Positions 17,751 through 64,000 of a stretch of 64,000 bases of DNA are shown here, in pieces (the stretch's first letter is position 1; every line of letters starts with the position of its first letter). Source of the stretch: Cetorhinus maximus (lineage: Eukaryota); contig NC_135903.1 in NCBI RefSeq assembly GCF_964194155.1, positions 5,022,001 through 5,086,000 of the forward strand, read 5' to 3'. Position numbers and translations under genes: made by a program. The notes beneath the pieces were generated by a model. The model did not search any database, had not been told where the DNA came from, and was given only the letters and a program-made list of their open reading frames with translations.

Positions 17751-17786
<36 letters not shown>

Positions 17787-18171: not shown

Positions 18172-18187
18172 CGGTGACAGAATTCAT
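18172..18187 (-). CDS. CSF3: G-CSF-like cytokine, exon 1 coding part (MNSVT + 1 nt)
   Basis: ATG AAT TCT GTC ACC G / GTAAGT. Phase 1 matches exon 2. Total CDS 16+176+108+153+168 = 621 nt, i.e. 206 aa with no internal stop. Confidence 0.82.
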
Positions 18188-18289
18188 ATTGAGGAGATCT
18201 TCACTTGTCAGTGGCTGGTCTTCTCGAACTGTTTTCGGTGGGTAGATTAAGGTGGAAGTGTGGGAGGCTATTTCCAAGCTGATACACAT

Positions 18290-18445
18290 GCTGCATTTAT
18301 ATATTGCTGAGATTCATAACAATTATCTAGTCAGCTATTTCTCAATATCCAATATAAGGAAATGATACAAATAGAAAATTTAACTGGGAACTCCAGAAAA
18401 TAGGGAACAAAGATAATTAGATTCAATATATGAAAATTCCAAAGG
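18290..18445 (-). promoter_or_regulatory. Inducible-type cytokine promoter: TATA, C/EBP, ETS and NF-kB-like sites
   Basis: TATATAAA (18296-18303, minus strand) about 110 bp upstream of the ATG; ATTGAGAAAT C/EBP-like (~18337-18346); AGGAAA (~18357); GGGAACTCC (~18386-18394); GAAAATTCC (~18432-18440). Confidence 0.65.
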
Positions 18446-18619
18446 AGAGGGGACAATTCAAGGATTATCAGGGAGGAAAAAGCTAATTTCAAATAGATAA
18501 AAATGGAATTAGATAAAATTGGCAGGTTGAGTATTTGGAAAATAGAATGGTGTGCCAACATTAGGAAACTTTCAAGGCAATTGACGACAGGCACATTGGG
18601 TGGCTGGTTCGATCTCACC

Positions 18620-19050
18620 CCTTCTGTGTCGCAGTCTGAGACGTTCTAGGTTCAAGTTCCACTCCAGAGACTTCAGCTCTGAGAAGAATCATGGCTGAAG
18701 CCTCAGTGTAGCACTGAGGGAGATCTGCCACTGTCAGAGATGTCCTCATATGGATGAGACGTTAAACTGAGGCCCTGTCTGCCCTCTCAGGTGTACGTAA
18801 AAGATCCCGTGACACTATTTCGAGTTGTTCCCAGTGTCCTGCCCAACATTTATCCCTCAAACAACATCATAAAAATATGTATCTGCTGATTATCACATTG
18901 CTATTTGTGGGAGCTTGCTGTGTTCAAATTGGCTCCTGTGTTTCCTACATGACAACTGTGAATACACTTCAAAAAGTAAATCATGAGCTGGAAAGCACTT
19001 TGAGACATCTTGCAGTCATGAAAATCAACATATAAATGCAAGTCTTTCTT
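18620..19050 (+). mobile_element. tRNA-derived SINE (HE1-like)
   Basis: B-box-like ggttcaagttccactcc head and a shared body (ggatgagacgttaaac..gtaaaagatccc..tacacttcaaaa) that recurs at ~9000, ~12610, ~48720 and elsewhere. Confidence 0.65.
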
Positions 19051-38200: not shown

Positions 38201-38968
38201 TGTTATGACCAATGCAATTGGTTAAGCTGAGTTATTTAAAAATCCCAAATGGAAACTTGAAATAACTGTCATAACCTATAATTTTAAGTGTTATGCTTGA
38301 GATGTGACTCTAAATTCAGGAATCAGACCACCAGTTTGAGGTTTTACATTAAACTAAATGAAACAATTTATTAATTTACACAGGTTAAAATATACACATG
38401 GCTACAAATTATTACTATCATAACTTTTAACAAATTCCCAAACTAATCTCCATTAAGGCAACAGCAACCCATGGACTTAGCCAAACACCAGGCAAAGCAT
38501 TTTCACCTTACAAATTCAAAATGAGGTTCTCTTCACTTTGGTTCCTGTGGAGGCAGTGTAGGCTTACAGCTGCCTTTTGATCTCACATTGCCTCTGCTCT
38601 GCACACCTGAAAACTACTGAAGTTATACCTACCACCCCCCATTGAATGTAAATTCTCATTGTATCACCAACATCTTTGAAGTCCACCTTTTAACAATTAA
38701 ACCCCTTTCACAGTACCAATTTTATTAGTAATATAAACATATTGCTTGGTAAGTGCTAGATAGACTTCAGTTTTCGTCCCATTTCTTGAACGCTCTATTC
38801 AATAAAATGCAAATACACTCTATCTCTCTTACATCTCAAAACTAGTACATAGCAAAGCACCCAGACTAGCTGGCTTTAATCCAATTAAGACACACCCACA
38901 GACTAAACCTCTATTTTAAAAGAAAAATATTTTCCAATAATATTATACACATTAATAGCTTCATGACA
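38201..38968 (-). repeat. 3' LTR of the Gmr1-like element
   Basis: TGTTATGA...TCATGACA termini; clear direct repeat of 43585-44341. Confidence 0.9.
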
Positions 38969-41900: not shown

Positions 41901-43565
41901 TTGCCCTTTAAATTTACCTTCCACAATGGAATAGATTTAGCATCTCCATGAAGCCCACTTATTATGACCTTTTCCTGCAACACTCCCTTTGAACAACAAA
42001 TATCACTATCCCACAACATTAAGGATTGACTAGCCCGTGTCTCTTAAAATTTAACATCTTTACGTACTCCACCTTGTACACATGGAAAGACTTTCTCTTC
42101 ACACACAAAATCTTTAAACATTTCTACAACCTGCTCCCCAGAATTCTCTTGAGTTACCTGTGAACATATTCCCACTTCTTTACCTTTCACTGATTCTCCC
42201 TGTTTCACCTGTACTCAAACCATTGGTTTCTCTTGTGCCTGAACCTCAGAACCCACAGCACTTTTACTTCCAGAGCATTTCTGTTCCCCAAAAATTCCTA
42301 CAGATTTTTCCTGCAACCTCCAACACACTGACTTTGTGTGCCACACTTCATTACAATGAAAACACCTCAATTTTCAAATGTCACTTCTACCTTCAGCACC
42401 TTCCTTTTTATTCTGAGAAAAAACTTCCTGGGAGCTTCCAGCTACACTTTGTCTTCCCTGACTACCCACCTTCCTTTCACCTTCCCACTTTTTATCCTTG
42501 TCCAATTTGAAAGCGTGACAGGAAAAAGGTTTAGCTCTATGAACTAACTCATAATCATCAGCTATCTCTGCTGCTTGTCTTACAGAATCAACCCTCTGTT
42601 CCTCCACATGAGTTCTCACTACCAAAGGGATTGAATCTTTAAGTTTATCAAAAAGAATGACTTCCCTAAGAGCTGCATAGGTTGTCTCTCTATTTAACAC
42701 TCGTATCCACCGGTCAAAATTATTTTGTTTTACTCTTTCAAACTCAACATAAGTTTGCCCAGGCAGTTTTCTCATATTTCTAAATTTTTGCCTGTATGCT
42801 TCAGGAACCAACTCAAATGCACTTAACGTAGCTTTTGTCAGCACATCATAATTCACTGACATTTCTTCTGAAAGCAAAGCATATACCTCATGTGTCCTAC
42901 CTAACAGCTTAAACTGTAATAATAACCTCCAGTTTTCCTGTGGCCAGTTCATCTGTTTAGCTAGCTTCTCAAATGAAATAAAGAATGCTTCAATATATTT
43001 TTCCTCAAACCTTGGAAGAGCTTGTACAAATTTAAACATAGCTCCACTGGGTTCTACTTTAGAGGTAAATCCTTCCTCACCTACTGACATCTCTTTTCTA
43101 ACTGCCAACATTTTCAGTTGGATTCTCTCTCTTCTCTCTCTCTCTTCTCTCTCTCTTTCCTCCTTCTCCATCTTCACAATTTCTAGTTCCTTTGCTTCTA
43201 ATTCAAACTTCTTCATTTGCAACTGAAGTCTCACTACCTCCAGCTGTGACTCACTAGTCTCAGGTTTCACTTCCAACTGTAGATGCTGTGTTATACTTTT
43301 AACTACATCTGATTTCCAAGCCCCCTCAGGTAACCCCAATGTTAACTTATTTGCCAACTCCATTAACTTACTTTTGGTTATTTTCTCCAACCCAATTAGA
43401 ATTCTCTTTTCTACTCCCAGACAAGTCTCAGCAATTGCCAAAGCCATCTTGCATTCTCACCACTTCTAAAATATCTCACCAACTCCTGAATTCAAAGTGC
43501 CTCTCGTACTCATAAGCGTAAGATTCAACAATTCCTAACCAATCAAGGAATTAGAAATATAATTT

Positions 43566-43582
43566 ATCCCGGACGAGCCCCA
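43566..43582 (-). promoter_or_regulatory. Primer-binding site, tRNA-Pro
   Basis: Minus strand TGGGGCTCGTCCGGGAT, one G short of the canonical Pro PBS TGGGGGCTCGTCCGGGAT, 2 nt from the LTR. Confidence 0.9.
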
Positions 43583-43584
43583 AT

Positions 43585-44341
43585 TGTTATGACCGATGCA
43601 GTTGGTAAAGCTGAGTTATTTAAAAATCCCAGAGGGAAACTTGAAACAACTGTCATAACCTATAATTTTAAGTGTTATGCTTGAGATGTGACTCTAAATT
43701 CAGGAATCAGACCACCAGTTCTCGAGGTTTTATGTTAAACTAAATCAAACATTTTATTAATTTACACAGGTTAAAATATATATACACATGGCTACAAATT
43801 ACTACTATCATAACTTTTAATAAATTCCCAAACTAATCTCCATTAAGGCAACAGCAACCCATAGAATTAACCAAACCCTAGGCAAAGCATTTTCATCTTA
43901 CAAATTCAAAATGAGGTTCTTTTCACTTTGGTTCCTGTGAAGACAGTTGGAGCCTTTTGATCTTATATTGCCTCTGCTCTGCACACCTGAAAACTGCTGA
44001 AGTTATACCTACCGCCCCATTGAATGTAAATTCTCATTATATCACCAACCTCTTTGAAGTCCACCTTTTAACAATTAAACCCTTTTCACAGTTCCAATTT
44101 TTTTAGTAATATAAACATATTGCTTGGTTTGTGCTAGTTAGACTTCAGTTTTCACCCCACTTCTTGAATGCTCTATTCAAAAAATCCAAACTCTACCTCT
44201 CTATTTACATCTCAAAACGAGTACATATCAAAGCACCCAGACTAGCTGGCTTTAATCCAATTAAGACACACACACAAACTAAACCTATTTTAAAAGAAAA
44301 ATATTTTCCAAAATATTATACACATTAATAGTTTCATGACA
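43585..44341 (-). repeat. 5' LTR of the Gmr1-like element
   Basis: TGTTATGA...TCATGACA termini; adjacent to the PBS. Confidence 0.9.
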
Positions 44342-45294
44342 CTCACTAAGTCCTTCAAACAGCAATGATATAAATGAGCCCTGTAAATCTGCTTCAGCAG
44401 AGGATAGTTGGGATAGTGCTGGTTACTGAATGTATCCATTAAAGAAGTCTTCATGGTCTTCTGTAAATTAACACCGAGTCTTTATCAACTACTAACTATA
44501 TACAACTAGTACAGGCTGGAGTTATCTCCATCGTAGGCCTTAACAGGTCACTGGCCAACGCCACAATGACCCTAAGTCTAGGTCATGCGCTTGCTTACAA
44601 CACTGTGTGGGTGGTTCTGTACTCAGTCCCATAATACCCCTGTATATACCAGACCCTTCGACGACAAGCAGCACCATTCAGCCAAGCTGACAATTTAAAA
44701 ATGGTGCCCCTTTCAGCTTTTGTGTGTTGCAAATCAGACTTAACACATATAACTATTTGCATAGTTCCCCACCTCTTGATATTTGTTCTTCTTGCCCTGG
44801 TCTAATTCCACCCTAAAAGTTTTTATTCCTTCCCAGAATCAAATTTCGCTGCATTGACTCATCTTTCATGTTTCAACCTGGTGTTAGCAGGGCTGTTTCT
44901 TAGTGGAGAGGCACTTTGACCAAATCTATCCTGTCCTCTCCCAAACACTCTCAACAGTGGTTAGTCATTAGCTCAACAGTAAGGTTCCCAACTCTGGGTG
45001 ATTGTACTTCTGGAAGTTTCAACACTGTTCCTGCCTCAAAATGCTCTGCCCAATCAGCCTTTTTTTCCCCACCTCTGATTTTTAAAAATATGATAAATAA
45101 GCAAACATGTTCAATGAAAATAAAATGCACTTTTTAATGGCACTGATTTTTTCTCTCTCTCTCCGGGAACATGGTGCAGGAGGTTAATCTTTAATTGCTG
45201 GAGACTGCAGGGCAGACCTGGAGGGTTGGCAACAGGGACGCTGCGCACGATGATGCAGCATAGACCTCCAGTCCAGTGGGGGCCGCTGTAGCCA

Positions 45295-45500
45295 GCTGGT
45301 GATTGGGCTGCCGCACCTTTCATTCTGATTGGCCCCTCTCCCCCTCGCGCGGGGCAGGCGCGGGGTAGGCGCGGGGGCCCAGCGTTCGGCTCTCTGATTG
45401 GTCGGCTCTATGCTTCTCTCCGATTGGGGGGGGGGGGGCGTGGGAGGCGGTGACCAATCGGGTGCCGGTTTGCTGCGGGGTGCTGGTGAAAATGGCGGCG
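45295..45500 (+). promoter_or_regulatory. CpG-island promoter of MRPL10
   Basis: CpG-rich, five CCAAT/ATTGG boxes (~45301-45458), GC-rich boxes, and a YY1-like AAAATGGCGGC overlapping the ATG. Confidence 0.8.
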
Positions 45501-45528
45501 CTGTGCGGGCGGCTGCTGAGCTCCGGAG
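45492..45528 (+). CDS. MRPL10: Mitochondrial ribosomal protein L10 (uL10m), exon 1
   Basis: ATG...MAALCGRLLSSG G / GTGAGA, phase 1; transit-peptide-like. Confidence 0.85.
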
Positions 45529-46104
45529 GTGAGAGTGTGAAACAGAGAAAAGAAAAAGAAAACGGGCAGAACGTGAAAAGGAGAAGAGGCAGATTTAATG
45601 TTCAGCCTCTTTTTTTCAGCCCTGATGCGGTGTCCAGACCAAAGCGTTTAATATTTCTCCCTTTTAGGCGCATCTCCCTGTTGCCATTGGGAAGGGCGAT
45701 GAGCAAGCAAGACTTGCATTTCTATAGCACCTTTCACGACCTCAGGGCGCCTCAAAAGCTCCTCGCACCCAGTGAAGCGCTTTCAAAGCAGAGCCGCTGT
45801 TGTAACGTAGGAAACGCGGCAGCAGCCAGTTTGTGCACAGCAAGATCCCACAAGCAGCAATGTGATAAATGACCGGATAACCTGTTTTCTTCTTGTGATA
45901 AAGGCCGAAGCCGCAGCGAAACGTCAGCGGGTCTGGCAACTGAGTGGTCCTGCTAGGCTGTTTTAGAGGGAACTGAGTTAAAAGCAGAATACTGTGGATG
46001 CTGGAGATCTGAAATAAGAACAGAAAATGCTGGACAAACTCAGCAGGTCTGGCAGCCTCTGTGGAGAGAGAAGCCGAGCTAACGTTTCAAATCCGATATG
46101 GGTC

Positions 46105-46984
46105 TGTTAGGAAATAGAAATAGTTTGAGTACGTTATGTTGGCGTTTGTGGGTGTTAGGAATGAGGTTTAGCTTTAATGTTTAAGTTTGGTTTGTATTTC
46201 TGTATCCGTGTGTTAAGAAAGGTCAAATTGAGTTTTAGTTTCATTTTAAAAGGTGCCAGCTTTTAACGGGGGTGCAGGGAGGCAGGTCCCTCCCACAGAC
46301 AGAAGGACTAAAGAAATAGCAGCTTTGAGTTCAGTTTGAAGCCAGGACTCCACGGAGACTGGACATTGGGAGAGGGAACTGCAGAATGAGAGCAGATTTC
46401 CCACACACCCTGGAGGTGAACCCTTGCAGAAGGCATCTGAGAGAAAGCGTCAATTTGGGAGAAGATTCCAAAGCGAGTTCTTGGAGAGTGGAGATTGGAA
46501 ACCCTCGTGTGAAAGATGGAGTTCAGTGAGACTGGTTGGCTCATGGTGGGACAAGTGTCTGGGGGGAGGGGAGAGTGCGGTTGTTGATTAGAGATCCATA
46601 GCGTCTGGTTGAGGTGGCATCTGTCACTTGGTTTCAGAGTGTGGTGTGCCTGACCACAGGGTGCCTTTTGGTTTACATGGACTGTGTACTTACTGAGGAC
46701 ATTAGAGTATAACATATAGTATAGCAGTATAGCTTTTGAAACATGTGTTATCCTTACAAATCTGTATATATCTAAAGGTATACTTGTGGGTGAAGGAGTA
46801 TTGTAATATAGTTCATCTTTTCTTGTTTAATTAATGTTTTATTCTTTTCATTAGCTGACTCCAGTGACTCTGTTCAATGGCCACTCTCCACGTATCTAAA
46901 CAAATTAAACGTTATGATCTATCAAGCTGGGTTCCACTCTGTGATCAGGCTTGTCCAGGGGTAACCTTAGCTGGGATCATAACA
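46105..46984 (+). mobile_element. Solo LTR in MRPL10 intron 1, inserted into a Penelope-derived repeat
   Basis: TGTTAGGA...TCATAACA termini, about 880 bp, non-coding; interrupts the repeat at 45980-46104. TSD is not clean. Confidence 0.65.
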
Positions 46985-47109
46985 ACTCTTAGTTGAAATG
47001 GAGTTTTTGTGATGTTGATTGAGGGATAAATATTGGCCAGGCCACCAAGGATAACTGCCCTGCTCTTCTTCAATATAGTGCCATGGGATCTTTTACGTTC
47101 ACTTCACAG

Positions 47110-48255
47110 AAGCACAGAATTTTAACGGTACAGAAGGAGACCACTTGGCCCATCATGTCTGACGTGGCCCTCCAAATGAACATTATGACTTAGTGCTATT
47201 GTCCTGCCTTTTCCCCGTACCCCTGCACATTGCTTCTATTCAAATAATCATCTAATGCCCTCTTGAATGCCTTGATTGAACCTGCCTCCACCACACTTCC
47301 AGGCAATGCATTCCAGACCTGAACCATTCGTTGTGTGAAAAAGATTTTTCTCATGTCACATTTGCTTCTTTTGAAAATCACTTTAAATCTGTGCCTTCTC
47401 GTTCTTGATCCTTTTATGAGCTGGAACATCTTCTCCCTATCTACTCTGTTCAGGCCCCCTCGTGATTTTGAACATCTCTGTCAAATCTCCTCTTAGCTGC
47501 CTTCTCTCCAAGGAGAACAGTCCCAACCTCTCCAATCTATCTTCGTAACTGAAGTTTCTTATCCCTGGAACCATTCTTGTAAACCTCTTATGCACACTCT
47601 CCAATGTGTTCACAGCGTTCCCATAATGTGGCACCCAGAACTGTACACAATACTCCAGCTGAGGTCTAAAGAGTGTCTTATATAAATTCAGCATAACGTC
47701 CTTGCTCTTGTATTCTATGCCTCTATTAATAAAGTCCAGGATACTATATGCTTTATTAAATGCTCCCTCCACCTGTCCTGCCACCTTCAATGATCTATGC
47801 ACATATACACCCAAGTCTTTCTGCTCCTGCACCACCTTCAAAATTTCACCCCTTCATATTGTCTGTCCATGTTCTTCCTACCCAAATGCATCACCTCACA
47901 CTTCTCCGCATTGAACTTCTAACTTGTATATGTCCTTTTGAAGTTCTACACTGTACTCGCAGTTTACAACACTCCCAAGCTCTGTATCATATGCAAACTT
48001 TGAAATTCTCCCCTATACATCAAGATCTAGACCATTAATATATATCAGGAAAAGCAAGGGTCCCAACACTGACGCCTGGGGAACTCTACTACAAACCTTC
48101 CTCCAACCCGAAAAATATCCATTGACTATTACTCTCTGCTTCCTATTTTTCAGCCAGTTGTGCATCCACATTGCTACTGTCCCTTTCATTCCGTGAGCAA
48201 TAACTTTCCTCACAAGTCTATTGTGTGGCACTATATCAAATGCCTTTTGGAAGCC
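47110..48255 (-). mobile_element. CR1 LINE 3' fragment (RT)
   Basis: ORFs 48013-48291 (FQKAFDIVPH..VPQASVLGPLLFLIYIN), 47437-47841 (LYKTLFRPQLEYCVQFW) and 47196-47429. Confidence 0.9.
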
Positions 48256-49666
48256 CTCACTTGAGAAAACAGACTCAGATGAACCACCCACAGACTGTAC
48301 AGCACACCCTCAAAACTATGCTGGAGTGTCAGTCTAGATTTTTGTGCTCAAGTCTCTAAAGTGGGACTTGAACCCACAATCTTTTGACTCGGAGGCGACA
48401 GTGCTGGCAACTGAGCCGCGGCTGACATCAATGAGTAGGATAAACTGGGATGAGGAAGGCCATTCAGCCAAACCTAATTCACTCGGCCATCCTAGAAGAT
48501 CCTCCAGGGTCACCCCTCATGCAGTGGAACGGCTTCCAGGCTTTTCCCAGAGAACATAAGAAATAGCAGGAACAGGCCATTTGGCCCTTCAAGCTTCTTC
48601 TGACATTCAATGAATCTGATCTGCTACCCCAATCTCACCTTCCTGCGCTATCCTCATACTCCTTAGGGTTTCTTTAGTACCCAAAAATCAGGTTACACTT
48701 GATCCGTCTTTCTTAGGCAGTTGGCACTACTTCGAAGAAAAGCAGGGGAGTTAGCCCTGATTTTCTGGCCAATATTTAACTTCAGTCAATATCATGAAAA
48801 ACAGATTATCTGGTCATTATCTTTACTGTTTGTGGGAGCTTGCTGTGTGCAAATTGGCTGCTGTATTTCCTACATTGCAGCAGTGAACACACTTTAAAAG
48901 TGCCTCATTGGCTATAAAGTATCTTGAGACATCCTGTGGTTATGAATGATGCTATACAAATGCAAGCCTTTTTCTTGATGCACAGAATATGGTTGTATTA
49001 GTTCAGGGGGTTTCTCAGGCACTGTAACCTAACCAATCAAAAGATCCTCAGTTTTGCACTAATTGAAGGCAGGAAAGTGTGACAGTTATTCTTTCACAAA
49101 TGGCAATTGATGCTGGAAGTGTTAATTTTAAATCTGAGAATGATAGATTTTTGTTATCCAGAGATATTAAGCAATATAGGATTTTGAGTTTGAGTTATTA
49201 ATCCAGGTCTCTGGATTACTCATTTAGTAACATAACTACTATGCTACTATTTCCATAATTAAGACCTTTTCAAAATATTTTGGCCATTGTGTGTTCAACA
49301 CCTTATCCTTAAAAATAGTTCTGGGAGTTATCTTCTCTCTTTTCTGGTCTCTCCATTCTGCATTCTTCTGTGGCCAAGAACATGGCCAGTTGTTTATTCT
49401 TAGACCTGTGACAATGCTGTTCTGAAATAAGAATCAAGAGGACCAAAGAAATGACTTCTCTCTTAAGTTTCCTTCTTTCCCTATGAGGAATTTCTTGTTC
49501 TCAGCTTAAGACCAATCGCACGATTGGATGATGTGAGGTTAGCATCTCAGTGAGTGTGCGCTGCAGCGAGAAGAGCGAGAAGAAAATCTGTTTGAATTGC
49601 CGGCGCTTAACTTCCTAAGAGTCTGAGGTGTTGGCTAAACCCAAGTGTTTTTGTTTTTTTTTGAAG

Positions 49667-49836
49667 GATGGTTTCCGCCCCAGCAGATTGTGCGTCATGG
49701 ATCCAAGGCCGTGACTCGCCACCGCAAACCCATGCACTTCCTCCGTCAGAAGCTGCTGGCTGTCACACAATACATCCCCCCGAAGCCCGCCGTCCCAGAA
49801 CGATGCATCAATCCAAGGAAGCGGGAAGTCCAAGAG
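49667..49836 (+). CDS. MRPL10: MRPL10 exon 2 (170 nt)
   Basis: [56 protein letters not shown]; AG/GT boundaries, phase 1/0. Confidence 0.95.
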
Positions 49837-52373
49837 GTGAATGAGCGTTGCTTTGGGCTTTTGACATTTCTTCTCTGCACTGTGTGTAGCAGTGGAGGAA
49901 AGAGCCTGAATCAGTAAATATACTTTTTTTAATAGATGAAGGTTTATATGTGTGACGTGGACATTCTTGGCAGGGATCCACCAAGGGTTGTGCAGATTTG
50001 CACATGATTTCCCTTGATTCTTGACAAAGAGCAAATTGGGCTAAGAGAACATCGCTGTCATTGATATATCTCCTGTACTATTGCTCACAGATGCTGGGGC
50101 CCGAATACTTATGTTCCTTGGCAGCAAAACATATTCAATATAGAGAAGACAAGTTCCTTATGGAACTTTCATTCATACAAATACATTTTATAGACTAATA
50201 AAAAAATTGTAAGAAAATATGGTTTAAGGAAAGATCATTGGCCCAATAAATTCCTTTTGTTATGCTGGACATAATCTACACTCGCTCTTTTCAGTAAGAT
50301 TGCTAATCACAAGAACAACTTCCAAACAGATAAAATTATGAAACTTGCTACAAACTATAATTAAGTGAAAACCCCCAGATATTAATCTGAAATCTGATGT
50401 ATCGCAAGCTAAGATTCAGCACTGACCCACTGGATCCCATAGATAACCATTACATAGATTCAGCAGTGTAGAAACTAGTGGGGTCCATGTGCTAACGTGC
50501 CTAATCATAATAATCAATTCTGTTCCACAGTTTCTTCTATAAGATGGGGAGAGAGCCAGTTACCATAACTTTGTGAATAGCACATTATCATCCCACCACC
50601 CTCCCCCACCCCATCCACCCACGGTCCCAGTACAAAAAATAGGGGTGCACATTTACTACTTTTTATTTGTTAATGGGATGTGAGCGTCGCTGGCAAGGCC
50701 AGCATTTATTGCCCACCTTTAGTGGTGTTGGTGAAGTTGGTGCTGAGCAGCTTTGAACTGTGGCAGTCCATGTGATGTAGGTATACCCGCAGCACAGTTA
50801 GGGAGGGAGTTCCAGGATTTTAACCCAGCGACAGCAGAGGAGTGATGGAAGGAGGAGCTATGGAGTCCGCCTTAGCTCCGTGGTAGCATTTTGCCTCTGA
50901 GTCAGAAGGTCGTGGGTTCACTTCCATTCCAGATTTGAGCACATGACCTAGGCTGATAATTCAGTCCAGTGGGCTCTCGGGTGGCCATAGAGGAATGCAT
51001 GGGACGTCCTGAGGACAGGAAAAATGCTAACGATGGGTGGGCAGTCAGTGAATTTAAAGCAACAGAAACACAAGTATCAGTATAATAGATTAATGAGAGT
51101 CCGCGCAGGATTGGAATAAATCGCGTTCTGCATATTCTAGGAACCAACAACTTGTATTTATATAGCGCTTTTAACAACAATATGTCCCAAGGCACTTCCC
51201 AGGAGCATTATAAAACAAAATTTGACACCGAGCCACGTAAAGAGATATTACGGCCATTGACCAAAAGCTCGGTCAAAGAAGTAGATTTTAAGAAGTGTCA
51301 TATTAGAGAACAGAGAGGTTTAGGAAGAGAATTGCAGAGCTGAAGGCCCTAGCAGCTAAAGGCATGACCATCAGTGGTGGATCAGTTAATATCAGGAATG
51401 CTCAAGGGCCAGAATTAGAGGAGTGTAGATATCTTGGAGGGCCGCGAGGCTGGAAAAGATTGCGGAGATAAGGGGGATGGGTGAGGGCGAGGACAGATTT
51501 GAAAACAAAGTTGAGAAAAGTGCCTAATATTTGTTAGACTTTGAACTTGGGGCAATCTGAATTCCTTTGCCATTAGTCTTTTTCACGAGACCTGAAAAAT
51601 AAAAAATGTTTCCTTCCAAAGAGATTTGTTTGGGAATTTATTACTTTAGAATTGGTCAGAGAAAGAATAATGTGGGATATTGTGTTTGTTCAATTGCAGT
51701 ACTTGATTTCTACCACCAGAGGCCCTGTGTGAGCCACAAATGTAATGATCTCAAGTAGCAAAAACTATTAACAGTTTTGCTGATAACAGTCCATTTTCAT
51801 ATACAGCAAATGAAAACTTGATAAAATCCTAATTTATGGATGCAGCTGATAAATCATCTCTTCAATGTGGAGTTCAGTCATAGGGACCAGGAAGACTCCA
51901 AAATAAAGCTCTGGTGTAAGCTGAGTTAGCTACTCTGTGCTGGGGCAGCTGGCTAGGTGGTAGGAGTATGGTGACTGGCCTCATTGCCCTTGGAATAGGG
52001 GGAGGAAAGGCCAGCCAGGGTTCTCCTTACTGACCCCTACCCGGTAACTCTGATGGAAGAGGCACTACCGCAGATTTCGCAGGAGGAAAGGTTTGGACTT
52101 GGCTGTGACTCTGCCCATGGTCGAAAAGCCTGCCAGCAGTTGGTGCCTAGGAGGGTAACAGTTGGCCTGTTAGCCCTGTGAGTACTCCGTAATCTCTGCA
52201 GTTTCAAGAGGGCAGCATGTTGAGCTGCTTTATTTCTAGCGCTACATAAGACCCACTGCTGGGCGTTAACAAAAGCATCTGTTTTTTTTCCCGTGCGGGT
52301 AACAGCATTTCACTGTTTTCCTTAGTCAATGCAATGCTGTGTATAACAATGTTCGTGTAAATCTCTCCTTTAG

Positions 52374-52538
52374 CCATCTGGTTTAGAAAAGCTCCTGCGG
52401 CGCAATGTGGAAGTGACGTTCAGGGAGAATAAAATGATTGCCGTTTTCCAGAGCAACTCCATCACCTCCGATGAGCTGAGGCTTCTCCGGCATCGATTGT
52501 TGAAACACGACATTCGCATGAAATTCTTCCCTAACCAG
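52374..52538 (+). CDS. MRPL10: MRPL10 exon 3 (165 nt)
   Basis: PSGLEKLLRRNVEVTFRENKMIAVFQSNSITSDELRLLRHRLLKHDIRMKFFPNQ; phase 0/0. Confidence 0.95.
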
Positions 52539-54112
52539 GTTTTTCTTAACTTTGCATCCTATGCATCATTCTAGCTAACGCCCTTCATAGAATTGCAGCA
52601 GCTTGGTGAGCAGTGTTTGTTTCTTAACTGAGTTTCTCTTTTAAACCCCCTCCTGCCCCTGCCTTCTTCAGAAGGTGTCAACTCTCCTTGGAGGTTCCAC
52701 TTGGTGCCTGTCCATTATTTTGTCTCAGTGGATATTCTCCATACATGACCCTAACTAGGCTCACGTGTGCAGATGGCTGAAGACTTGGTTCTAATGCCAC
52801 TTACAGATGTAACCTCAGTTAGTGTGAAGAATAACATTTGGATCAGGTAAAGAGGATGTGGCACTGCACCCATGGGAAGATGGGGACAGACAACAAACCG
52901 AAAAGAAAATCAGTTCCCATTCCACATACTGGGTGTGGAAGCATAGTGGTTATGTTAGAGAGCTGGTAATCTAGCTGCCTGGGCTAAAGATCCAGAGACA
53001 TGAGTTCAAATCCCACTATGGCAAACGGGGGAATTTAAATTCGGTTAATTAAATAAAATAGAAAATAAATAAAACCAGCAATGGATTGTTGTAAAACCTC
53101 ATCTCGTTCGCCTTCCCTTAAGGAAGGAAATCTACCATCCTGGCCTGACCACCGTGTGACTCCAGACCCACAGCAATGTGGTTGACTCTTAATTGCCTTC
53201 TAAAAATGGCCAAGCCAGCCACTCAGTTCAAGGGCAATTAGGGATGGGCAGCAAACGCCGGCCTAGATAGCGATGCCCACGTTCCATGAAGGAATAAAAA
53301 AAAAAGATATTTGCTTTAGTTCGGATGGATTGGAGCATTCTTATTCACGTTTAGTGTACAGTGTCACAATGGATCAATCTGGTCCTATTTCGCACCTATC
53401 TACTGGGCTGTACAACCAATCCCAGTCATAATCCAGAGGCCCAGGCTAATGCTCTGGGGACATGGGTTCAAATCCCACCACAGCAGCTGGTGGAATTTAA
53501 ATTCAATGAATAAATCTGGAACATGAAGTTAGCCTCAATAATGGTGACCATGACAACTATCATTGATTGTTGTAAAAGCCCATCTGGTTCACTAATGTCC
53601 TTTAGGGAACGAAATCTGCCGTCCTCACCTGATCTGGCCCACATGTGACTCCGGACCCACAGCAATGCAGTTGACTTTTAACTACCCTCTGAAATGGCCG
53701 AGCAATCCACTCAGTTCAAGGGCAATTAAGGATAAGCAATACTTGCCAGTGACACCCAATTCCTATCAATTAATAAAAATAATTCCAAGTTTAAAGATGA
53801 AAAATCTTCCAGTTGACCCACAGTGGCATTGCTCACAGGGAATTGAGACCAAATCATGCACATGTCTCTGGAGTAGGACTTGAACCCATAACCTTGTGAT
53901 TTAGAGGCAAAAGTGTCACCACTGAGCCAAGGCTGACACAGACAACAGTAAAACTGGCCATGCGCCATATTGCTGTTTGTAGATATTGCCTGTTTAAATC
54001 AAGTCAGCGTGTGGTATTTTAATATTGTGAAGCACTGTATAAGTGCAGGTCTCAGTGATGGCACATTTCAAGTTCACATCTTGTAATGTCACTGATTATT
54101 TCTCTGTCTCAG

Positions 54113-54257
54113 GTCATGCGTTCATATCTAACAGACACCAAGTACAAGAACCTGTTGCCCTTGTTTATTGGTCACAATATCATTGTTGTGAGTAAGGAGC
54201 CCAAAGCTAAAGAGCTCCTGAAGATCGTGCGCAGTACAACTCAGATCACTTTACTGG
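54113..54257 (+). CDS. MRPL10: MRPL10 exon 4 (145 nt)
   Basis: VMRSYLTDTKYKNLLPLFIGHNIIVVSKEPKAKELLKIVRSTTQITLL G; phase 0/1. Confidence 0.95.
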
Positions 54258-55589
54258 GTAAGAGCAATAACAGAGCTACGTTCAAATTGGAACGATAGTT
54301 ATTTACAATTTCCAATTGCATCGGATTCTTAAACTTAATTTTACACATCTCGTTAGCTCGCACACTCTCTCTTACGGAACCATGAGCTTTGGTCTAACAA
54401 TTGCATTTTGTCACTAGACTGAAGATGACATGGTATTCAAGAAGGTCTGCATAAATTTCATGCTTACATTGTTATAATGTGAAAAGCTGTAGAAGACAGA
54501 TTACTGAATAGACCAGTGGATCCCAACAAAACCTGTCTAATTGTAGAGGATTTCAGCCCTTGTTTTAATATTCCTTAACATTGATTGCCACCCTTTGTGA
54601 CCAGAGGGTAAATGCATGACACAGTCACATATAGTCAAGGCATAAAATGCATTTAAACGTTTATTCTGATTTTATTGCTGGCCTACTGTTCACTATCTTC
54701 ATTGAACTTGTAAACAATGTTTCAGTGGGTGAGTCTATGGAACAGACTCCCTAGAGAGGAAACGGAAGTGGTTAGTATTGATTCATTGCAGATGTAAATT
54801 ATATAGATTTCATACTGCAAATAACATTTTTGGATACAGTGTGCGAGTTATTCGAGACGTGTTGTGTGATAAGAGTATCGTGCTTTGTACCTGTGGTTCT
54901 CGCAGTTCCCCACCACTGGGATTTTCATAGCAAGTTTTCTTCATCCATCATCCCTGTGCTCACTGAACTTTATTGACTCCTGGTTGGGCCATTTTTTAAT
55001 TTTGAAATTCTCTTCCTTGCCTTCAAATCTCTCCAAGGCTTCACCCTCAGCTCTGTAAAGTCTTCAAGCTCCAGAACCCTTCAGCATCTGTGTGCTGCTC
55101 CAATTCTGAACCCCTGTGCATCCCCAGTTTTAATCGTTCCATCACTGGCAGTTGTACCTTGAGCTGTCTATCTCCAAAGCTCTGGAATTCCCTTCCTATA
55201 CCTCTCCCACTCTCTACCTCTCTCTCCTCCTTTAAGGCGCTGCTTAAAATCTGCTTTTACCAAACCTTTGCTCACCTGTCTTAATTTCTCCTTATGTGGC
55301 TTGGTGTCAAGTTCCACTCAAGAACATAAGAAATAGGAGCAGAAATAGGCATTGAACCTGCTTAGACTCAGCTCCACTTTCCTAGCTTTTCTCCATAACC
55401 CTTGACTCCCCTAAAGTTCAAAAATATGTCTATCTCAGTCATGAATATATTAAATGATTTTTGTTTGATAATCTGTCCTGGGATGTTATACTATATTAAA
55501 GGCAGTATATAAATGCATGTTGTTATTTTTCTCCTATCATTTCTAAGTCTGTTGTTGACTAATGATAGAAATGGATTGTTGAATACTCC

Positions 55590-56110
55590 TGCTCCTGCCA
55601 GTGGATCTGCTGACCTGGGATGTCACATTCACCTGTCTTGAGCCATCCTCACACATCCACTATAGCTTGTCTGCAACCACTCTTTGATGTTGGTTATCCC
55701 ACCCCTAGGTTGACCCCTCTTTCTGCTGCCCTCCACTTTGCCCTCTAGAATGAATCTCTGTCGATTTTCAGCTCTGATCACGTGACCAAAATACTGACAC
55801 ACACTTTTCTGGATGTTACTTTTTAAGAGTTCTTTTCGCTTTTGCAATTTCAAACACCTCTTCATTTGTCTTATGGTCTGTACATGGAATTTTTAGCATA
55901 CGTCTTCGTGACCACATTTCAAAAGGCCTCTATTTTCTTCCACAGATCTTTATTTATTGTCCAGGTTTCTGAGGCACACAGGAAGGTGGATAGAATGTCA
56001 CATCTTGTTCTTGTTCTTGTCATCTTCATAAAATTATTTCTGACTATCTCTATCCTCCCTCTGACTTCAGTGTTGTATCCACCATCTTCTGTTAACAGCC
56101 CCATCAATGT
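55590..56110 (-). mobile_element. RTE-clade LINE 3' fragment
   Basis: ASETWTINKDLWKKIEAF...QYFGHVIRAENRQRFILEGKVEGSRKRGQPR, typical of the RTE C-terminus. Confidence 0.8.
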
Positions 56111-56186
56111 ATTTAATATACGACTGCCTGTATATAGAAGGTGCTAAAATTTGCCCCTGTTAATCGTGCTGTCTCTTCCTATGCAG

Positions 56187-56449
56187 GGGCTTGTATCGAA
56201 GATGTACTTTTCAGCAGACAGGGAGTGGTTGATTACTCCAGGCTCCCAGGAATGCAGATCATCCATGGCGAGCTTGTGGGCGGCCTGACTGTTATGACAT
56301 CTCAGACGTGCCAACTTCTACAGTCTGGCCCCATGCACCTTGCTGCCCTATTGGAGCAGTACTTGAAACAGCAGAGTGAAGCTGCCACTGGACTGAAAGA
56401 GACAGGGAACCTTGAGCAGGAGGGAATAGGGGGGAGTCAAGGATCTTAG
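56187..56449 (+). CDS. MRPL10: MRPL10 exon 5 (to stop)
   Basis: ACIEDVLFSRQGVVDYSRLPGMQIIHGELVGGLT...GSQGS*. Total CDS 780 nt = 259 aa. Confidence 0.93.
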
Positions 56450-58648
56450 GACTTTTGGGCATTATCTGGGTGACAAAGTACCTTTCTCTCTGTTTATTGG
56501 TTTAAATGGATTGAAGAAGAAATAAAACAGAGTGCTTGTCCATGCTTGGGGACACAAAGGATTGTTTAACTCTTCGAAAGTAACAGTTTTTGCAGTACAC
56601 ATCTCCCTCATTCCAAATGCATTACTTTTATCGCCTGTGCTGTTATTATTAAGATTGACCTTCTTCATGGATATAGATTAAAACAGTTCCCAGAATGTAT
56701 GAACAAAAGGCAAAGTTTGAATATTAGGAAATTATAATACAGTTAAAACTAAATACATGTTATTAGCTCCCATCTGCTTACGTTCATTTTTCAGGTATAA
56801 TTTGATCAGTGTTCCAGTCCCAATTCAAAGAGGACCAATTGTGGAACTTGGCTCCACAATTTACATTGACTGGCGCTGCCAGTGTTAATTTCCTCGGCTG
56901 TCCTGCTGTGGGATGAAAAGAAAAAGCGAAACACTGGGTACCTGAAACTGAAATTGTTGGAAATGCACAATCCAGCGTCTGTCCCAGAACGTGAATATTA
57001 TTGTTTTGAATTCTATAATGGAATACTTCTCTCTCTCTCTCTCTCTGGGGATTCCTGTGTATTTTCCAGCATTTTCTGTTTCATGTCCTATTTATGATCC
57101 TGTTGGTAATGGTGGGTGAGATGTTAGAACACAAGTTAAGCAAATGTACTGGGCCAGTTTGTTTCATCACATGTATTCTGAAATGACGCTGTTGAATTTT
57201 GCATAGCCCGATTGGAATAAAACACAAAAGCTAGAAAATATAACAATCTTCTAATACTGTTAAATGTGTTACAGACTATCACTGCAATCCATGATGGGCC
57301 TGGTTTGATTGACACTTTCAGAATTTTGGAAGTGGATTCTGTATGGTAATGCACAGGAGGTTTAAAATACTATATAAGGCAAGCAGCAGTGCTGTAAGAT
57401 AAAATGATTTCTATTATGCACATTAATACGGTGGACTCCTGTGTACATTTCAGTTTTACCAGTCAAAAAGTAGGACATAGTTTGATTCCTGCTCCATGTT
57501 GAGTTTGCTGATTTCAGCAGAGATGTTATAACTGAATTAAATTTCTGCACTTGCCCCTCCCCAGGCTAGAAGGAGAAAAATGGAGACACTGTTCCTGCTG
57601 GTGATTTTTGTATGTTAAGTCATGCTCGTTAAGTGCCTATGTATGGATGTCATGTAACAGTAGTAATCCACGACCTGCTGACTCTCTGTCTTGATGTACA
57701 CAGGAGAAATGGCCACTTGGCGGAACAGTGGTGCCATTAGCTGATGGTACAAGGTCAAGGGGACACAGGTTTAAAATTTAGTGCAAGAAATACAGGAGGG
57801 AATGTGAGGAAGAATTTTTTTCACTCAGAGTGGTAATGACCTGCACCTTGCTGCCTGTGAGAGTGGCGGAAGTGGAGATGATCAATAATTTCAAAAGGAA
57901 ATTTGATAGGTGCTTGAGTGAAATAAACTTGCAGGGCTACCAGGATAGAGTGAGAGAATGCGACTGACTGGATTACTCTACCTGTACTTGCTCAGATTTA
58001 GCTCTGGCATGAGATCTGAATTCTATACATGAACTGGAATTTGTGCCATCCATGTGAAATATGGAAACTTGAAGGTCTACCGGAAGGCAATCTGATTCAT
58101 CAAAAAAACTTGCTTTTCAGATGTAGAAAAATGCTCTTTAAAGAATATATTAAATTGTCGACTGATTCTAGTTGAATTATTGTTTTATTAAATGTTATGA
58201 TTTTTGCTGTGTTGACCTGTTTCTATATAATTATTTAACCTGTTAATAAACCTGATGAAATACTTTTAGCCTGTACAAGCTGATCATACCATGTTACCTT
58301 CTATTTTTTGGAAGGGATGGCTGAAGGTGGAGGGTGTCCCATGTATTCTCCAGTAATCAATATAGCATTATTACAGGTTAATTTTTTTTTTACATTTGTT
58401 TATGGGATGCAAGTGTGGCTGGCTAGGCCAGCATTTATTGCCCATTCCCTAACTGGCCTCAAGAGGATGGCGGTGAGCTGCCTTCTTGAACTGCTGCAGT
58501 CCATGTGTTGTATGAACACCCACAGTGCTGTTAGGAAGGAAGGGAGTTCCAGGATTTAGACCCAGTGACAGTGAAGGGACGGTGATATTGTTCCAAGTCA
58601 GGACGGTGTGTAACTTGCAGGGGAACTCGCAACAACCCAATGGGGGCT

Positions 58649-59749
58649 TGGAGTCTGGCTTTACTCACGTGCATTTCTAGCAGAGTTTGAATGGTATTCC
58701 AGATTTGAAAGACAAAATCCTTGTTTCTTTCCAGTCCGTCCCGGAACTCCGGCGGCGTCTGGTCACCTGAAATCTCCAAGGGCGAAGTTGGAGCAGCCCA
58801 GGAGAGGCTGCTTGCTTTCAGCACCGAGCAGAGCATCCAGAGAGCTGCATGGGGAAGATTGAGGCTGTGGTTAACAGACTAATGGGACTAAACAATGTGT
58901 CGAAAGCCCGGCGCTTGATTTCTAACCTTTTCTCTCTCTCTGTTTCTCTGCAGATTTTTCTCTCTTTCTGCTTCCCTCCCTCACTGATCACCTCTCCTCT
59001 ATTTCATGCCTCCTTTCCTCCGATCTGTTTGCCAACAGATGTATCCTCTATTGCGGTCACGTCTCCACAAGCCAGGCCAATGAAACAGGCGCTATAACTA
59101 CTTACAAAAAGTTTTCTTTTTTGGGAATAAATAAAACCGATTGTTAATAACCTGGTCCTTACAGGTCGCTAAAACACACACTTACCGGTGACAGAATTCA
59201 TATTGAGGAGATCTTCACTTGTCAGTGGCTGGTCTTCTCGAACTGTTTTCAGTGGGTAGATTAAGGTGGAAGTGTGGGAGGCTATTTCCAAGCTGATACA
59301 CATGCTGCATTTATATATTGCTGAGATTCATAACAATTATCTAGTCAGCTATTTCTCAATATCCAATATAAGGAAATGATACAAATAGAAAATTTAACTG
59401 GGAACTCCAGAAAATAGGGAACAAAGATAATTAGATTCAATATATGAAAATTCCAAAGGAGAGGGGACAATTCAAGGATTATCAGGGAGGAAAAAGCTCA
59501 TTTCAAGTAGATAAAAATGGAACTAGATAAAATTGGCAGGTTGAGTAATTGGAAAATAGAATGGTGTGCCAACATTAGGAAACTTTCAAGGCAATTGACG
59601 ACAGGCACATTGGGTGGCTGGTTCGATCTCACCCCTTCTGTGTCGCAGTCTGAGACGTTCTAGGTTCAAGTTCCACTCCAGAGACTTCAGCTCTGAGAAG
59701 AATCATGTCTGAAGCCTCAGTGTAGCACTGAGGGAGATCTGCCACTGTC
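58649..59749 (-). pseudogene. 5'-partial duplicate of the G-CSF-like gene: promoter, exon 1 (59186-59201), exon 2 (58669-58844)
   Basis: Direct repeat of 17474-18735. Exons, splice sites, TATA and kB-like sites are intact; no exons 3-5 found downstream. Confidence 0.93.
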
Positions 59750-61064
59750 CACAGACGCTGAGTACTTCCAGCATTTTCTGTTTTTATTTCAGATTTCCAG
59801 CACCCGCAGTATTTTGCTTTTTTTCCAATCAGTTTGACCTTTATTAATCCTTCAGGTTTCATCTTATATCTCATTAAAGAGGCAACACCCCCAATTGGAA
59901 CTGTAAGAGGGGCTTCATCGGAATTTGGATCCCCTGTAGGTTAGGGAGAACATGTGACTCGAATGAGCCTCCTGACACACACATGGCACTGGGGGAAGGA
60001 GAGGGACTGGAGTTTGGAGCTTTGACTCACCTGCAGGTGGCCAAGCTTTGAGATTCCCTCTTTTCATGGGAGAGATTTCCATCATTTCTGCTGTTAACCC
60101 CTAAGGAGAATCTGATCCTGTGGGATTTCCTTGGAGCCTGAAGCTGCAGCTGTGAATTGTAAGAGGGCGCCTGCATTCATTTGAAATATTAACTTTGTAT
60201 ATCTCATGACTGGCTGAGTATTTTCAGCATTTTCTTTTATTTAAGAAAGATTTCAGGTTTGCAACACCTGTAGTATTTTTCTTTTGCTTTAAACTTTACT
60301 GATGCTAACTGACTTATGTATTTCCAAAAATAGATGCTAGTATCCAGGATTGAATATGACTGAACTGGCGGCGATGCCAGGATTTATTTCAGTGCATGTT
60401 ATGGAGAGATATCAGTTAATGTGGATGTACAATTTTAATAAATCTTGCAAATTATAAATACGCTTCAAAAATTATTTACGAGAATGGCTCCAGGGATGGG
60501 GGTGGGGGGGGGGTCTTAGTTTCATGGATAGATTGGAGAAGCTGGGGTTGTTCTCCTCAAAGAGAAGGTTGAGAGGAGATTTGGCAGCAGAGTTCAGAAT
60601 CACGACGAGTACAGATGGAGAGAAACTGTTCTCGGTGGCAGGAGAGTCAAGAATCAGTGGACACTGATTTAAAGTGATTGGTAAATGAGACAAAGGTGAC
60701 CTTTCTAAGTGGTAAGTAGTTCCGATCTGGAATGCACTGCCTAAGAAGATGGCGATGGCAGATTCAATCGTGGCTTTTAAAAGGGAACTGAACGTCCCCT
60801 GAACAGATATGAGCTAAACTATTCTTACAAAGAGCTAGCATGGGTTCGATGGGCCAAATAGCCTGCGCTGTAACTATTCTGTGAATCTGTGAGTTTGAGG
60901 TTCATTGTTGCACTATTTATGGGAGCGGCTGTACTTCATTTGGCTGCAGACCAGAAAATGCACTTTATTATTTATCACACTGGCCTTTGATCAGTGTCGG
61001 CTGCTTTGATCTGTCAGTTTGATCAAAGCGTTTTCTATTCGCCATTGGCTCCAGCCAATGTGTC

Positions 61065-62350
61065 CGTCTTCATCCCATTCTCTCAGTTCCTTCGCCTCCG
61101 TCGCATCTGTTCTGATGACGCTACCTTCAAAAACAGCTCCTCTGACATGTCCTCCTTCTTCCTTAACCGAGGTTTTCCATCCACGGTCGTTGACAGGGCC
61201 CTCAACCGTGTCCGGCCCATATCCCGCGCATCCTCCCTCACGCCTTCTCCTCCTTCCCAGAAACATGATAGGGTCCCCCTTGTCCTCACTTATCACCCCA
61301 CCAGCCTCCGCATTCAAAGGATCATCCTCCGCCATTTCCGCCAACTCCAGCATGATGCCACCACCAAACACATCTTCCCTTCACCCCCCTTGACGGCATT
61401 CCGTAGGGATCGTTCCCTCCGGGACACCCTGGTCCACTCCTCCATCACCCCCTACTCCTCAACCCCCACTTATGGCACCTCCCCATGCCCACGCAGAAGA
61501 TGCAACACCTGCCCCTTCACTTCCTCTCTCCTCACCGTCCAAGGGCCCAAACACTCCTTTCAAGTGAAGCAGCATTTCACTTGCGTTTCCCCTAACTTAG
61601 TCTACTGCATTCGTTGCTCCCAATGCGGTCTCCTCTACATTGGAGAGACCAAACGCAAACTGGGCGACCGTTTTGCAGAACACCTGCGGTCTGTCCGCAA
61701 GAAAGACCCAAACCTCCCTGTCGCTTGCCATTTTAACACTCCACCCCGTTCTCTTGCCCACATGTCTGTCCTTGGCTTGCTGCATTGTTCCAGTGAAGCC
61801 CAACGCAAACTGGAGGAACAGCACCTCATCTTCCGACTAGGCACTTTACAGCCTTCTGGGCTGAATATTGAATTCAACAACTTTAGATCTTAAACTCCCC
61901 CTCCCCCCATCCCCACCCCGTTTCTTTTCCCCCCCACCCGCCTTTTTTTCTTTTTTAATAATTTATATAGATTCTTCTTTCCCCACCTATTTCCATTATT
62001 TTTAAATCTAAAACTAAAACCTTTAGTCTTTCCACCCCACCCCCACTAGAGCTGTACTTTGAATATCCTGTCTTCCATTCTTAATTAGCACTTTTCTCAG
62101 ACAAAGACCACCACCTTCAACACCTCTTTGACCCTTTTGTCTGTGACATCTTTTGATTATCTGCTCACACCACACCCTCAATGTGTCTCTTCCCCCCCAC
62201 CCACCTTAAACCAATTTATATTTCTCCCTTGTTGAAACTATGCTTCAGTTCTGCTGAAGGGCCATGAGGGCTCGAAACGTTGACTGATTTCTTCTCCGCC
62301 GATGCTGCCAGACTTGCTGAGTTTTTCCAGGTAATTCTGTTTTTATTTTG
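61065..62350 (+). mobile_element. Second 5'-truncated Penelope-like element
   Basis: The GIY-YIG part of ORF 60994-61893 is nearly identical to 35755-36501; the 3' UTRs are more diverged. Confidence 0.92.
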
Positions 62351-62399: not shown

Positions 62400-62735
62400 T
62401 TTACTATTGGCTGTGATCCATACGTACCGTTTTCCCATTGGCTGCAATATTGTAGAAAAGTTCCCCATTGGCTGAAATATTGTAACCGAGTTCGCCATTG
62501 GCTGCGACATAACCATCATTCCATTGGCTGCGACATTGTAACCGAGTTCGCCATTGGCTGCGACATAACCATCATTCCATTGGCTGAAATATTGTAACCG
62601 AGTTCGCCATTGGCTGCGACATAACCATCATTCCATTGGCTGCAACATTGTAACCGAGCTTTCCATTGGCTGCAACATTGTAGCCGAGTCCTCCATTGGC
62701 TGCGACATTGTAGCCCATTTCCCCATTGGCTGAGA
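62400..62735. repeat. Minisatellite of 12 ATTGGCTG (CCAAT-box) units, 26-31 bp period
   Basis: ATTGG starts at 62406, 62437, 62467, 62497, 62523, 62553, 62579, 62609, 62635, 62665, 62695 and 62725. Confidence 0.95.
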
Positions 62736-62930
62736 CTTTGTATCCTTCCCTGGATTTCCCTGGGCGGGGCTGAAGCTCTGATTGACAGGACGAGGTGAGG
62801 TCGAGGAGGAAAAACCTAAGGAGAGGGGAGGAGGCAGCGGACACGGAAGAGACAAGAGGCGAAAGGTGGTGATTGCGCCAAAAAGAGGAGGAGGAGGTAG
62901 CGGCCCCGAGTCGGGACTGTCGGAGGGGAC
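62736..62930 (+). promoter_or_regulatory. Probable core promoter / non-coding first exon of the next gene
   Basis: GC box GGGCGGGGC (62762-62770) follows the CCAAT array; CpG-rich, purine-rich leader-like sequence. Confidence 0.55.
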
Positions 62931-64000
62931 TGGCTGCAATTTGCATCTCCCGTGGGTTTGGAAGAAGCTGTGGCTGGAATTAGCCTCTTGACACACGCGG
63001 CACTGGGGAGAGGAGTTTGCAGCTTTGACCCACTTCCAAGTGGCCAAGCTTCCAGATTCCCTCTTTTCCAGGGAGAGATTTCCATTATTTCTGCTGCTCC
63101 CCTCCCCGGAGTACAATCGGATCCTGTGGGATTTCCCTGGAGCCTGAAGCAGCTGCTGTGAATTGTCTTCATTTGTAAAGAACATTTCATCAAACTGGGA
63201 GACATCTGACTCTGGGCTTCCACATCTCAGTTGCCCCGTTCCCAAGGTCAGAGAGCATTGCCAACTGTGCCGGGCTTGGTGAAGTTCAGGAATGCTGAGC
63301 CTCCGAGACTTGGAGAGGTGGCTCATTTCCTAACGCGAGTCTCAGGTTTGAATGCCAAGATGTGGAATTGGGAATGCTGTGTCTGGGACTCGGGCGAGGC
63401 TGGAGGAGTTAACAATGTTGTGCATACGCTGTTTATAGTTGTGAGACGTTGTAATTATGAGCTTTATATAGGATGATCTGTTAAGAACCCAGGAAACTGG
63501 GTCAAGGACTGGGATGTACTTGTGCCCACAGTTCCCTTGTCCATGTGTGGTTGAGTTAACATGCCAGGCTGTATTACAGCGGGATGGGGCTGAATGAATG
63601 GCTGGTGCTCCCATTCCCTTCTCTTATCTTTCCTCCTTCTCCATCTGCTTTCCCTCTCCCTCGGCCCCCTCCTCTTCCCCCTCCTCCCCCGTGTTCACTG
63701 CCCTGTTGGTGGGTTACAGATGATGCATGACTTGAGATTGCAAAGGCAAAGTTACTGCCTTTTGAATAATATACACCTTATGGACTGGTCCCAGATTCGA
63801 TCCCTGATCTGTGCTATGTTGGTTGATCTGAATTGGGGCCAACGATAGTGTTGCTACATTGAGCTGGAATGCCCTGGGAACAAAGAATGCTCAAGTTCCC
63901 CACTCGTGATCATTGCCTTGTGAACTGTACTGGGCATACATGGGCATCGGGTAAGGACTGGATTTCGCTTGGCTGTCATCTGTTTGATAGTTGGTTAGCT

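Follow-up and report, generated by a model that had tools for sequence, protein, structure and literature searches.

Several systems described in the literature resemble parts of the locus analysed here. According to the available part of PMC11956922, the NOTCH2NL genes are 5′ partial duplicates that kept the first exons of their parent and took a new terminal exon from non-exonic DNA; they are re-synchronised with the parent by interlocus gene conversion, and some members give no stable protein. In the SIGLEC11/SIGLEC16(P) pair, the 5′ parts of immune genes have been converted repeatedly, lineage by lineage, even from a non-functional allele (PMC5701461, in its available sections), and in the red and green opsins conversion between direct repeats tens of kb apart has been at work over tens of millions of years, though parts escape it locally (PMC3924837, also available in part). 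The locus reported here, a partial duplicate of a shark cytokine gene, retains the promoter and the first exons together with their introns, as expected of a duplication at the DNA level, and is spliced to a new last exon, as in NOTCH2NL. As judged on contigs, the duplication predates a species split, and the paralogs within a species are closer to each other than the orthologs between species. The differences are also clear. NOTCH2NL measures ∼70 kb and is a few million years old, whereas the shark copy measures 1.1 kb and is far older; its new exon lies antisense behind the stop codon of another gene, and it would encode a stub of less than one helix instead of a run of folded domains. SIGLEC11 and SIGLEC16(P) are both whole receptor genes with opposite signalling, whereas the shark partner is a two-exon fragment, and the opsins are complete genes in which selection shaped the peak of divergence, whereas the shark divergence peak sits on an intronic insert. 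A literature search, with subscription journals largely outside its scope, retrieved no paper describing the duplicate, its age or its conversion; a gene model is already present at NCBI as the uncharacterized LOC144667829.

The DNA analysed, hereafter the window, is a 64,000-nt stretch of Cetorhinus maximus contig NC_135903.1 (positions 5,022,001 to 5,086,000), and all coordinates refer to it. Self-comparison of the window showed that 58649-59749 (minus strand) matches 17474-18735 in direct orientation, 41.0-41.2 kb apart, in two blocks of 97.4% and 93.7% identity split by extra parent sequence. The only full-length matches in the genome were these two loci, and 38 of the 41 matches were fragments, 72-109 bases long, of the upstream-end repeat. 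Hence, the duplication of a cytokine promoter and exons 1-2 to a site ∼41 kb away, as proposed in a preliminary description of this DNA, is real. Ahead of its TATA box the copy has 432 nt; it further includes exon 1 (coding part MNSVT, 59186-59201), a 341-nt intron 1 (58845-59185), exon 2 (58669-58844, identical to that of the parent and coding for what remains of the predicted signal peptide and for 28 of the 31 helix A residues) and 20 nt of intron 2. Identity stops at that point, as had been described, and is followed for ∼22 nt, to 58627, by weak similarity with an 8-nt indel, so that a diverged remnant of the duplicate may extend to 58627. The TATA box (59317), the ATG (59201), the donors (59185 and 58668) and the acceptor (58845) are all intact. 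Copy and parent differ at 5 of 432 bases upstream of the TATA box, at 1 of 116 between the TATA box and the ATG, and at 0 of 192 coding bases; intron 1 differs by 16 substitutions and 7 indels. The 5′ UTR difference at 59251/18237, put forward earlier as a diagnostic SNP, is present and is usable in this species only. Intron 1 of the parent contains ∼136 nt of extra sequence (20 + 116 nt, within 17886-18039) that is missing from the copy and from the parent-flanked contigs of the relatives (X12 record 1 and X8 record 24). The 116-nt insert (17886-18001) is similar to the flanking repeat piece of the copy (59750-59824).

Word matches in the copied proximal promoter (59311-59454, minus strand) gave as candidate sites two kB-like words (59454 and 59408), a C/EBP-like word (59359) and the TATA box. 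In 1000 first-order Markov simulations the TATA word was above chance (P 0.027) and the other words were not (P 0.11-0.14); thus, the kB-like and C/EBP-like words noted before are there, but at a frequency expected by chance. The duplicate is bounded by high-copy repeats on the minus strand. The downstream one (58395-58626), detected by self-comparison and in contigs, we take to be a LINE tail; the upstream piece (59750-59824), which is included in the spliced RNA described below, is presumably a Penelope-type end.

The parent gene (11978-18735, minus strand) has exons at 18187-18172, 17669-17494, 15092-14985, 13711-13559 and 12145-11978, the third starting where it had been placed before. All splice sites are canonical, and the product has 206 aa. 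Exon 4 is 82% identical in shark relatives. MED24 lies on the plus strand of the same contig (C26:4.88-4.94 Mb), tail-to-tail with the parent (minus strand, 5.03-5.04 Mb) and ∼93 kb apart, which is the position described for CSF3 in the available text of PMC7717901. In that text the whale shark gene beside MED24 is called IL6-like, and CSF3 is scored absent in two cartilaginous fishes; IL-6 is linked to TOMM7 (PMC13081863, in part available), and the weak IL6-family matches of this genome were located on another contig (C3). Set beside the whale shark ‘IL6-like’ gene, the parent shows five exons with phases 1-0-0-0, a four-helix fold and the tail-to-tail arrangement with MED24; the available part of PMC7717901 mentions no partial duplicate. 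In a representative search (13 matches, 9 clusters examined), eight clusters were named G-CSF, MGF or CSF3 and one was uncharacterized. The structure model (mean pLDDT 73) folds as a bundle of four helices, in which residues 71-101 of the 240-aa NCBI model form helix A. The 13 best fold matches were G-CSF, a result that is partly circular because the alignment behind the model was G-CSF-rich. A first model (pLDDT 43.9) was too poor for use. Single-sequence PDB and Pfam searches put IL-6 first, against the G-CSF identity; Pfam PF00489 gave no match to the parent, which was found by PDB searches and by its relatives. In databases, relatives are named IL-6-like. From the position beside MED24, the nearest named relatives and the fold, the parent is most likely CSF3/G-CSF, which would be expected to signal through CSF3R and to drive granulopoiesis. 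The analysis also speaks for the parent as shark CSF3, a gene that the available part of PMC7717901 scored absent.

Between parent and copy lies MRPL10 (coding span 45492-56449), on the plus strand with its stop codon at 56447-56449, as the preliminary description had it, and with plus-strand AATAAA signals at 56521, 57216, 57922 and 58245. It codes for a core protein of the mitochondrial ribosome and is essential. Pfam PF00466 gave no match to it, and it was recognized by PDB searches and relatives. To the right of the copy there is an OSBP-family gene, which from its position in human synteny we take to be OSBPL7.

The identity to the parent, 97% over the upstream part, is what would be expected if the assembly were wrong here or if this genome alone had acquired the duplication very recently. 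Contig X1 record 5 (58516-59786), which is unspliced, bridges both junctions with 0 differences, so that the structure is not an assembly artefact; run X1 may be an RNA run (116.7 million letters, no parent-type contig, size near that of X19), and its uncovered bins at 57400-57633 and 58102-58335 were given no weight. The same junctions occur in two relatives, organisms B and C, which differ from this genome in the flanks at 38 of 570, 30 of 518 and 41 of 780 bases (5-7%). The data for the relatives are assembler contigs from 8 of the 24 listed runs; such contigs drop variants and may collapse or mix paralogs. In C the downstream junction is bridged by X10 record 12 (58582-58715) and X14 record 9 (58612-59024, continuing beyond the stretch), and the upstream junction by X14 record 13 (59619-59784). 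In B the upstream junction is bridged by 35 letters of X19 record 17; none of the contig pieces shown covers the downstream junction in B. An artefact or a private recent copy is therefore extremely improbable. Identical breakpoints in three species indicate one origin before the species split, and on this comparison of sequences the duplicate is old, not recent. Its origin would be a local duplication, or else a template switch, that preceded the separation of the three species. Since shark mutation rates are low (PMC10587355, in its available part), the age should amount to tens of millions of years or more. A date of 39-50 million generations per lineage, obtained with the epaulette shark rate, overshoots and was too long to be taken literally. 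Among four candidates, a small set, no short copy-type protein was found in other sharks.

An old duplicate that is nearly identical to its parent suggests concerted evolution. In exon 2 the paralogs of this genome differ at 0 of 176 bases, against 7 of 176 between species (Poisson P 0.0009), and over the upstream region plus exon 1 they differ at 6 of 564 where 20-26 differences are expected (P 3e-4 to 3e-6). Sorting of variant sites covered 40 of the 90 difference rows, 25 of them with X19 cover. Within these 25 listed sites, 18 sort by species, 4 are found in C only, 3 are private to the copy of this genome, and 0 sort by paralog; at the 18 sites the two local paralogs share one base, and the B copy (X19) together with the B parent-flanked contig (X8 record 24) carry another. 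The remaining 15 listed rows fall in intron 1: in 10 the local paralogs are alike, in 4 the relatives match the parent, and 1 is unclear. A row is present only if a run departs from this copy, which leads to an under-count of changes derived in the parent, and the sorting depends on contigs, in which the parent-flanked one may follow the path of the copy through assembly bubbles. By comparison with outgroups, D48 is derived here and I9 is derived in B and C, each on both paralog-type contigs, and this polarity implies homogenisation in more than one lineage. The identical tracts between copy and parent measure 247, 247, 159, 86 and 65 bases, which fits the mean conversion tract of 250 bp given in the available part of 10.1101/135152. 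Insertions stop conversion, and divergence then clusters nearby (PMC3924837, in part available); as this predicts, the divergence between copy and parent peaks in intron 1 around the ∼136-nt parent insert, which is likely to be a conversion barrier. Depth in X14, a weak measure, was 7.8-8.2 over the shared part and 4.5-4.9 in neighbouring short contigs, and would fit two collapsed copies.

From these comparisons, repeated gene conversion is the likely reason why the copy has stayed nearly identical to its parent. The re-copying would stem from ectopic repair between the direct repeats, in tracts of a few hundred bases that would renew the promoter and exon 2 and be blocked at the intron 1 insert. 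Conversion usually fades as duplicates diverge (10.1101/135152, in the part available), so that a long persistence needs a further step. A crossover between the direct repeats would delete MRPL10; such deletions would be purged, and the copy would thus persist without needing a function. As the copy is old and evolves in concert, its intact motifs can be explained without selection. The long persistence and the conserved acceptor region described below would also fit selection for a function.

Splicing of RNA from the copy was seen in X19 record 17, an 805-letter contig from a putative RNA run of organism B. Beginning in the upstream repeat flank, it crosses the promoter region, exon 1 and exon 2, skips exactly 58845-59185 (341 nt, CT..AC on the plus strand), thereby using the GT donor at 59185, and its last 30 letters match 56876-56905 at 28 of 30 positions. 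This region, in which the minus strand offers a strong acceptor, is single-copy. The strand follows from the splice sites: the RNA is sense to the cytokine and antisense to MRPL10; this splice evidence is one contig from one run whose RNA label is a guess. In Cetorhinus maximus the three isoforms (X1-X3) of LOC144667829 are reproduced exactly by acceptors at 56905, 56902 and 57099, and all three carry the copy allele; the full-length NCBI model LOC144667719, which corresponds to our parent model, carries the parent allele. We infer that there is transcript support behind the LOC144667829 models. Together, the contig and the models bear out the proposal that the copy is transcribed on the cytokine strand, with the inherited splice sites, toward the MRPL10 3′ end. 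The orphan donor of exon 2 would take the nearest strong acceptors, 1.6-1.8 kb away, and since conversion preserves the splice sites, any transcript that crosses the copy would be spliced.

The new terminal exon (56470-56905, minus strand; 436-650 nt behind the MRPL10 stop codon) has tandem acceptors at 56905/56902 and another at 57099, a stop codon at 56887-56885 and an AATAAA at 56498. With the minus-strand AATAAA, the RNA could terminate 44 nt before reaching the MRPL10 stop codon; the lower end of the exon is placed, provisionally, near 56470, where the RNA would end. If MRPL10 uses its first signal (56521), the overlap with its mRNA would be ∼70 nt only. Two ATTTA words are present in 415 nt of the new exon and five in the first 978 nt behind the parent stop, so there is no clear difference. 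X19 record 17 reaches 480 nt or more beyond the copied TATA box on its upstream side, so that some of the transcription, at least, begins elsewhere and would enter the copy from upstream of this box. Candidates for the start are the repeat flank, the OSBPL7-like duplicate at 59879-60160 and divergent firing from a CCAAT array at 62435-62742. TATA-initiated transcripts may be hidden under the longer ones, as contigs show no start sites.

The predicted products from the true ATG have 70, 69 and 67 aa in this genome and 67 aa in B, with spliced tails QDSRGN, DSRGN or DHK; the tail has 6 codons in one species and 3 in the other. The read-through product of 109 aa suggested in the preliminary description has an open frame, but the spliced RNAs carry these tails in its place. 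NCBI starts both the parent and the copy model at an in-frame ATG (18289/59303), which adds 34 residues. We do not take 59303 for the true start, since it follows the TATA box by 14 nt and two shark relatives begin at the methionine equivalent to that of MNSVT. At the listed sites the extension shows 6 changes in 34 residues, against 3 in 64 in the true coding part, and the upstream NCBI start is probably mis-set. In the structure model, the stub comprises the leader and 28 of 31 helix A residues, but helices B-D are missing from it, as are part of site II and the greater part of site III. As modelled, the RNA would encode a non-folding stub and not a working cytokine.

Taking these results together, we consider it probable that the 5′ end of G-CSF was partially duplicated long ago, and that the duplicate has been kept by conversion and is spliced antisense behind MRPL10 into an RNA for a non-folding stub, in a purely passive manner. 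This reading builds on the duplicate itself, the junctions common to three species, the species-wise sorting of variants and the spliced form in one relative, and the main biological effect of the copy would be to provide a second mutational target and a template for the G-CSF promoter and N-terminus. Conversion could instead have maintained, over tens of millions of years, a second G-CSF promoter that is under selection, such that whatever signal activates G-CSF also fires an antisense RNA into the MRPL10 3′ end, or a secreted helix A peptide. If true, this would link emergency granulopoiesis to mitochondrial translation or provide a built-in antagonist, with the arrangement locked by the essential intervening gene; we regard it as rather unlikely. 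Unlikely, too, is the idea that the copy is a selected regulatory unit, with a conversion-kept promoter that drives an inflammation-induced antisense RNA over the MRPL10 3′ end or serves as an enhancer for MRPL10, OSBPL7 or the parent. A spliced antisense exon in two species, a minus-strand AATAAA 44 nt from the MRPL10 stop, a promoter as homogeneous as exon 2 and the long retention all agree with it, but the observed RNA starts upstream of the TATA box, the kB and C/EBP words are at chance level and explained by conversion alone, and the mRNA overlap would be that of ∼70 nt estimated above.

Two further proposals are very improbable. According to the preliminary description, the copy could be a distal alternative 5′ end, with exon 2 (58669) spliced across MRPL10 to parent exon 3 (15092) to give an identical cytokine. 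The strand is the same, donor and acceptor are both phase 0, and the coding sequence is identical, but the minus strand of the intervening 43.6 kb holds 18 strong-looking acceptors and 35 AATAAA signals, the full-length model carries the parent allele, and the form was seen in none of the NCBI proteins of the cluster (0 of 4) nor in the single RNA contig (0 of 1). The 58669-to-15092 junction was thus not borne out: the RNA contig (1 of 1) and the NCBI copy isoforms (3 of 3) use 56905, 56902 or 57099, contigs being prone to drop rare forms. As to the stub, a secreted peptide of ∼45-48 residues, helix A plus a short tail, might bind the G-CSF receptor as an antagonist or modulator. The ATG and the hydrophobic leader are intact, as are 28 of the 31 residues in helix A, and with the stop codon in the last exon nonsense-mediated decay would be avoided. 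Residues K16 to K23 of human G-CSF are presumably in its N-terminal helix. Human site II has eight residues, five of which, K16 to K23, fall in this N-terminal region (PMC9449972, in its available part), which speaks for such a peptide. Set against it are the missing helices B-D, the missing rest of site II and most of site III, the eight upstream ATGs that the long transcript would carry (59830-59202 in this genome), the tail length that varies between species, and conversion, which preserves the frame whatever its use.

The fragment looks recent and is ancient, and illustrates that an intact promoter, splice sites and frame can persist without selection on the fragment, a trap for readings that take conservation as function. 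In addition, it allows long-term conversion over 41 kb to be measured in a vertebrate that evolves slowly; the repeats enclose an essential gene and have a barrier inside them. In practice, reads and primers in exons 1-2 cannot separate G-CSF RNA from that of the copy.

The surroundings of the copy are rich in repeats and duplicates. The putative OSBPL7 5′ region (62894-63166) also has a local duplicate, at 59879-60160 (plus strand), which at 77% identity has diverged more than that of the cytokine; the genome has two copies of this sequence. This duplicate, 130 nt away from the cytokine copy, contains kB-like words. The duplicate-rich spot near 59879 may be a mosaic of template switches. A single tandem duplication spanning the cytokine piece and the OSBPL7-like piece was rejected, as the order of the pieces does not fit. 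The stretch 62435-62742 is a tandem array of ∼11 units of 30 nt, each with a minus-strand CCAAT box, followed by a GC box, and is likely the OSBPL7 promoter. A GIY-YIG (Penelope-like) element is represented by two pieces, 92% identical, at 35676-36984 and 61068-62350; the latter, placed between the copy and the CCAAT array, has an open frame of 300 codons. An LTR retrotransposon sits between the cytokine and MRPL10 promoters, at 38201-44371; its terminal repeats are 90% identical, and its broken frames match SCAN, reverse transcriptase and integrase domains.
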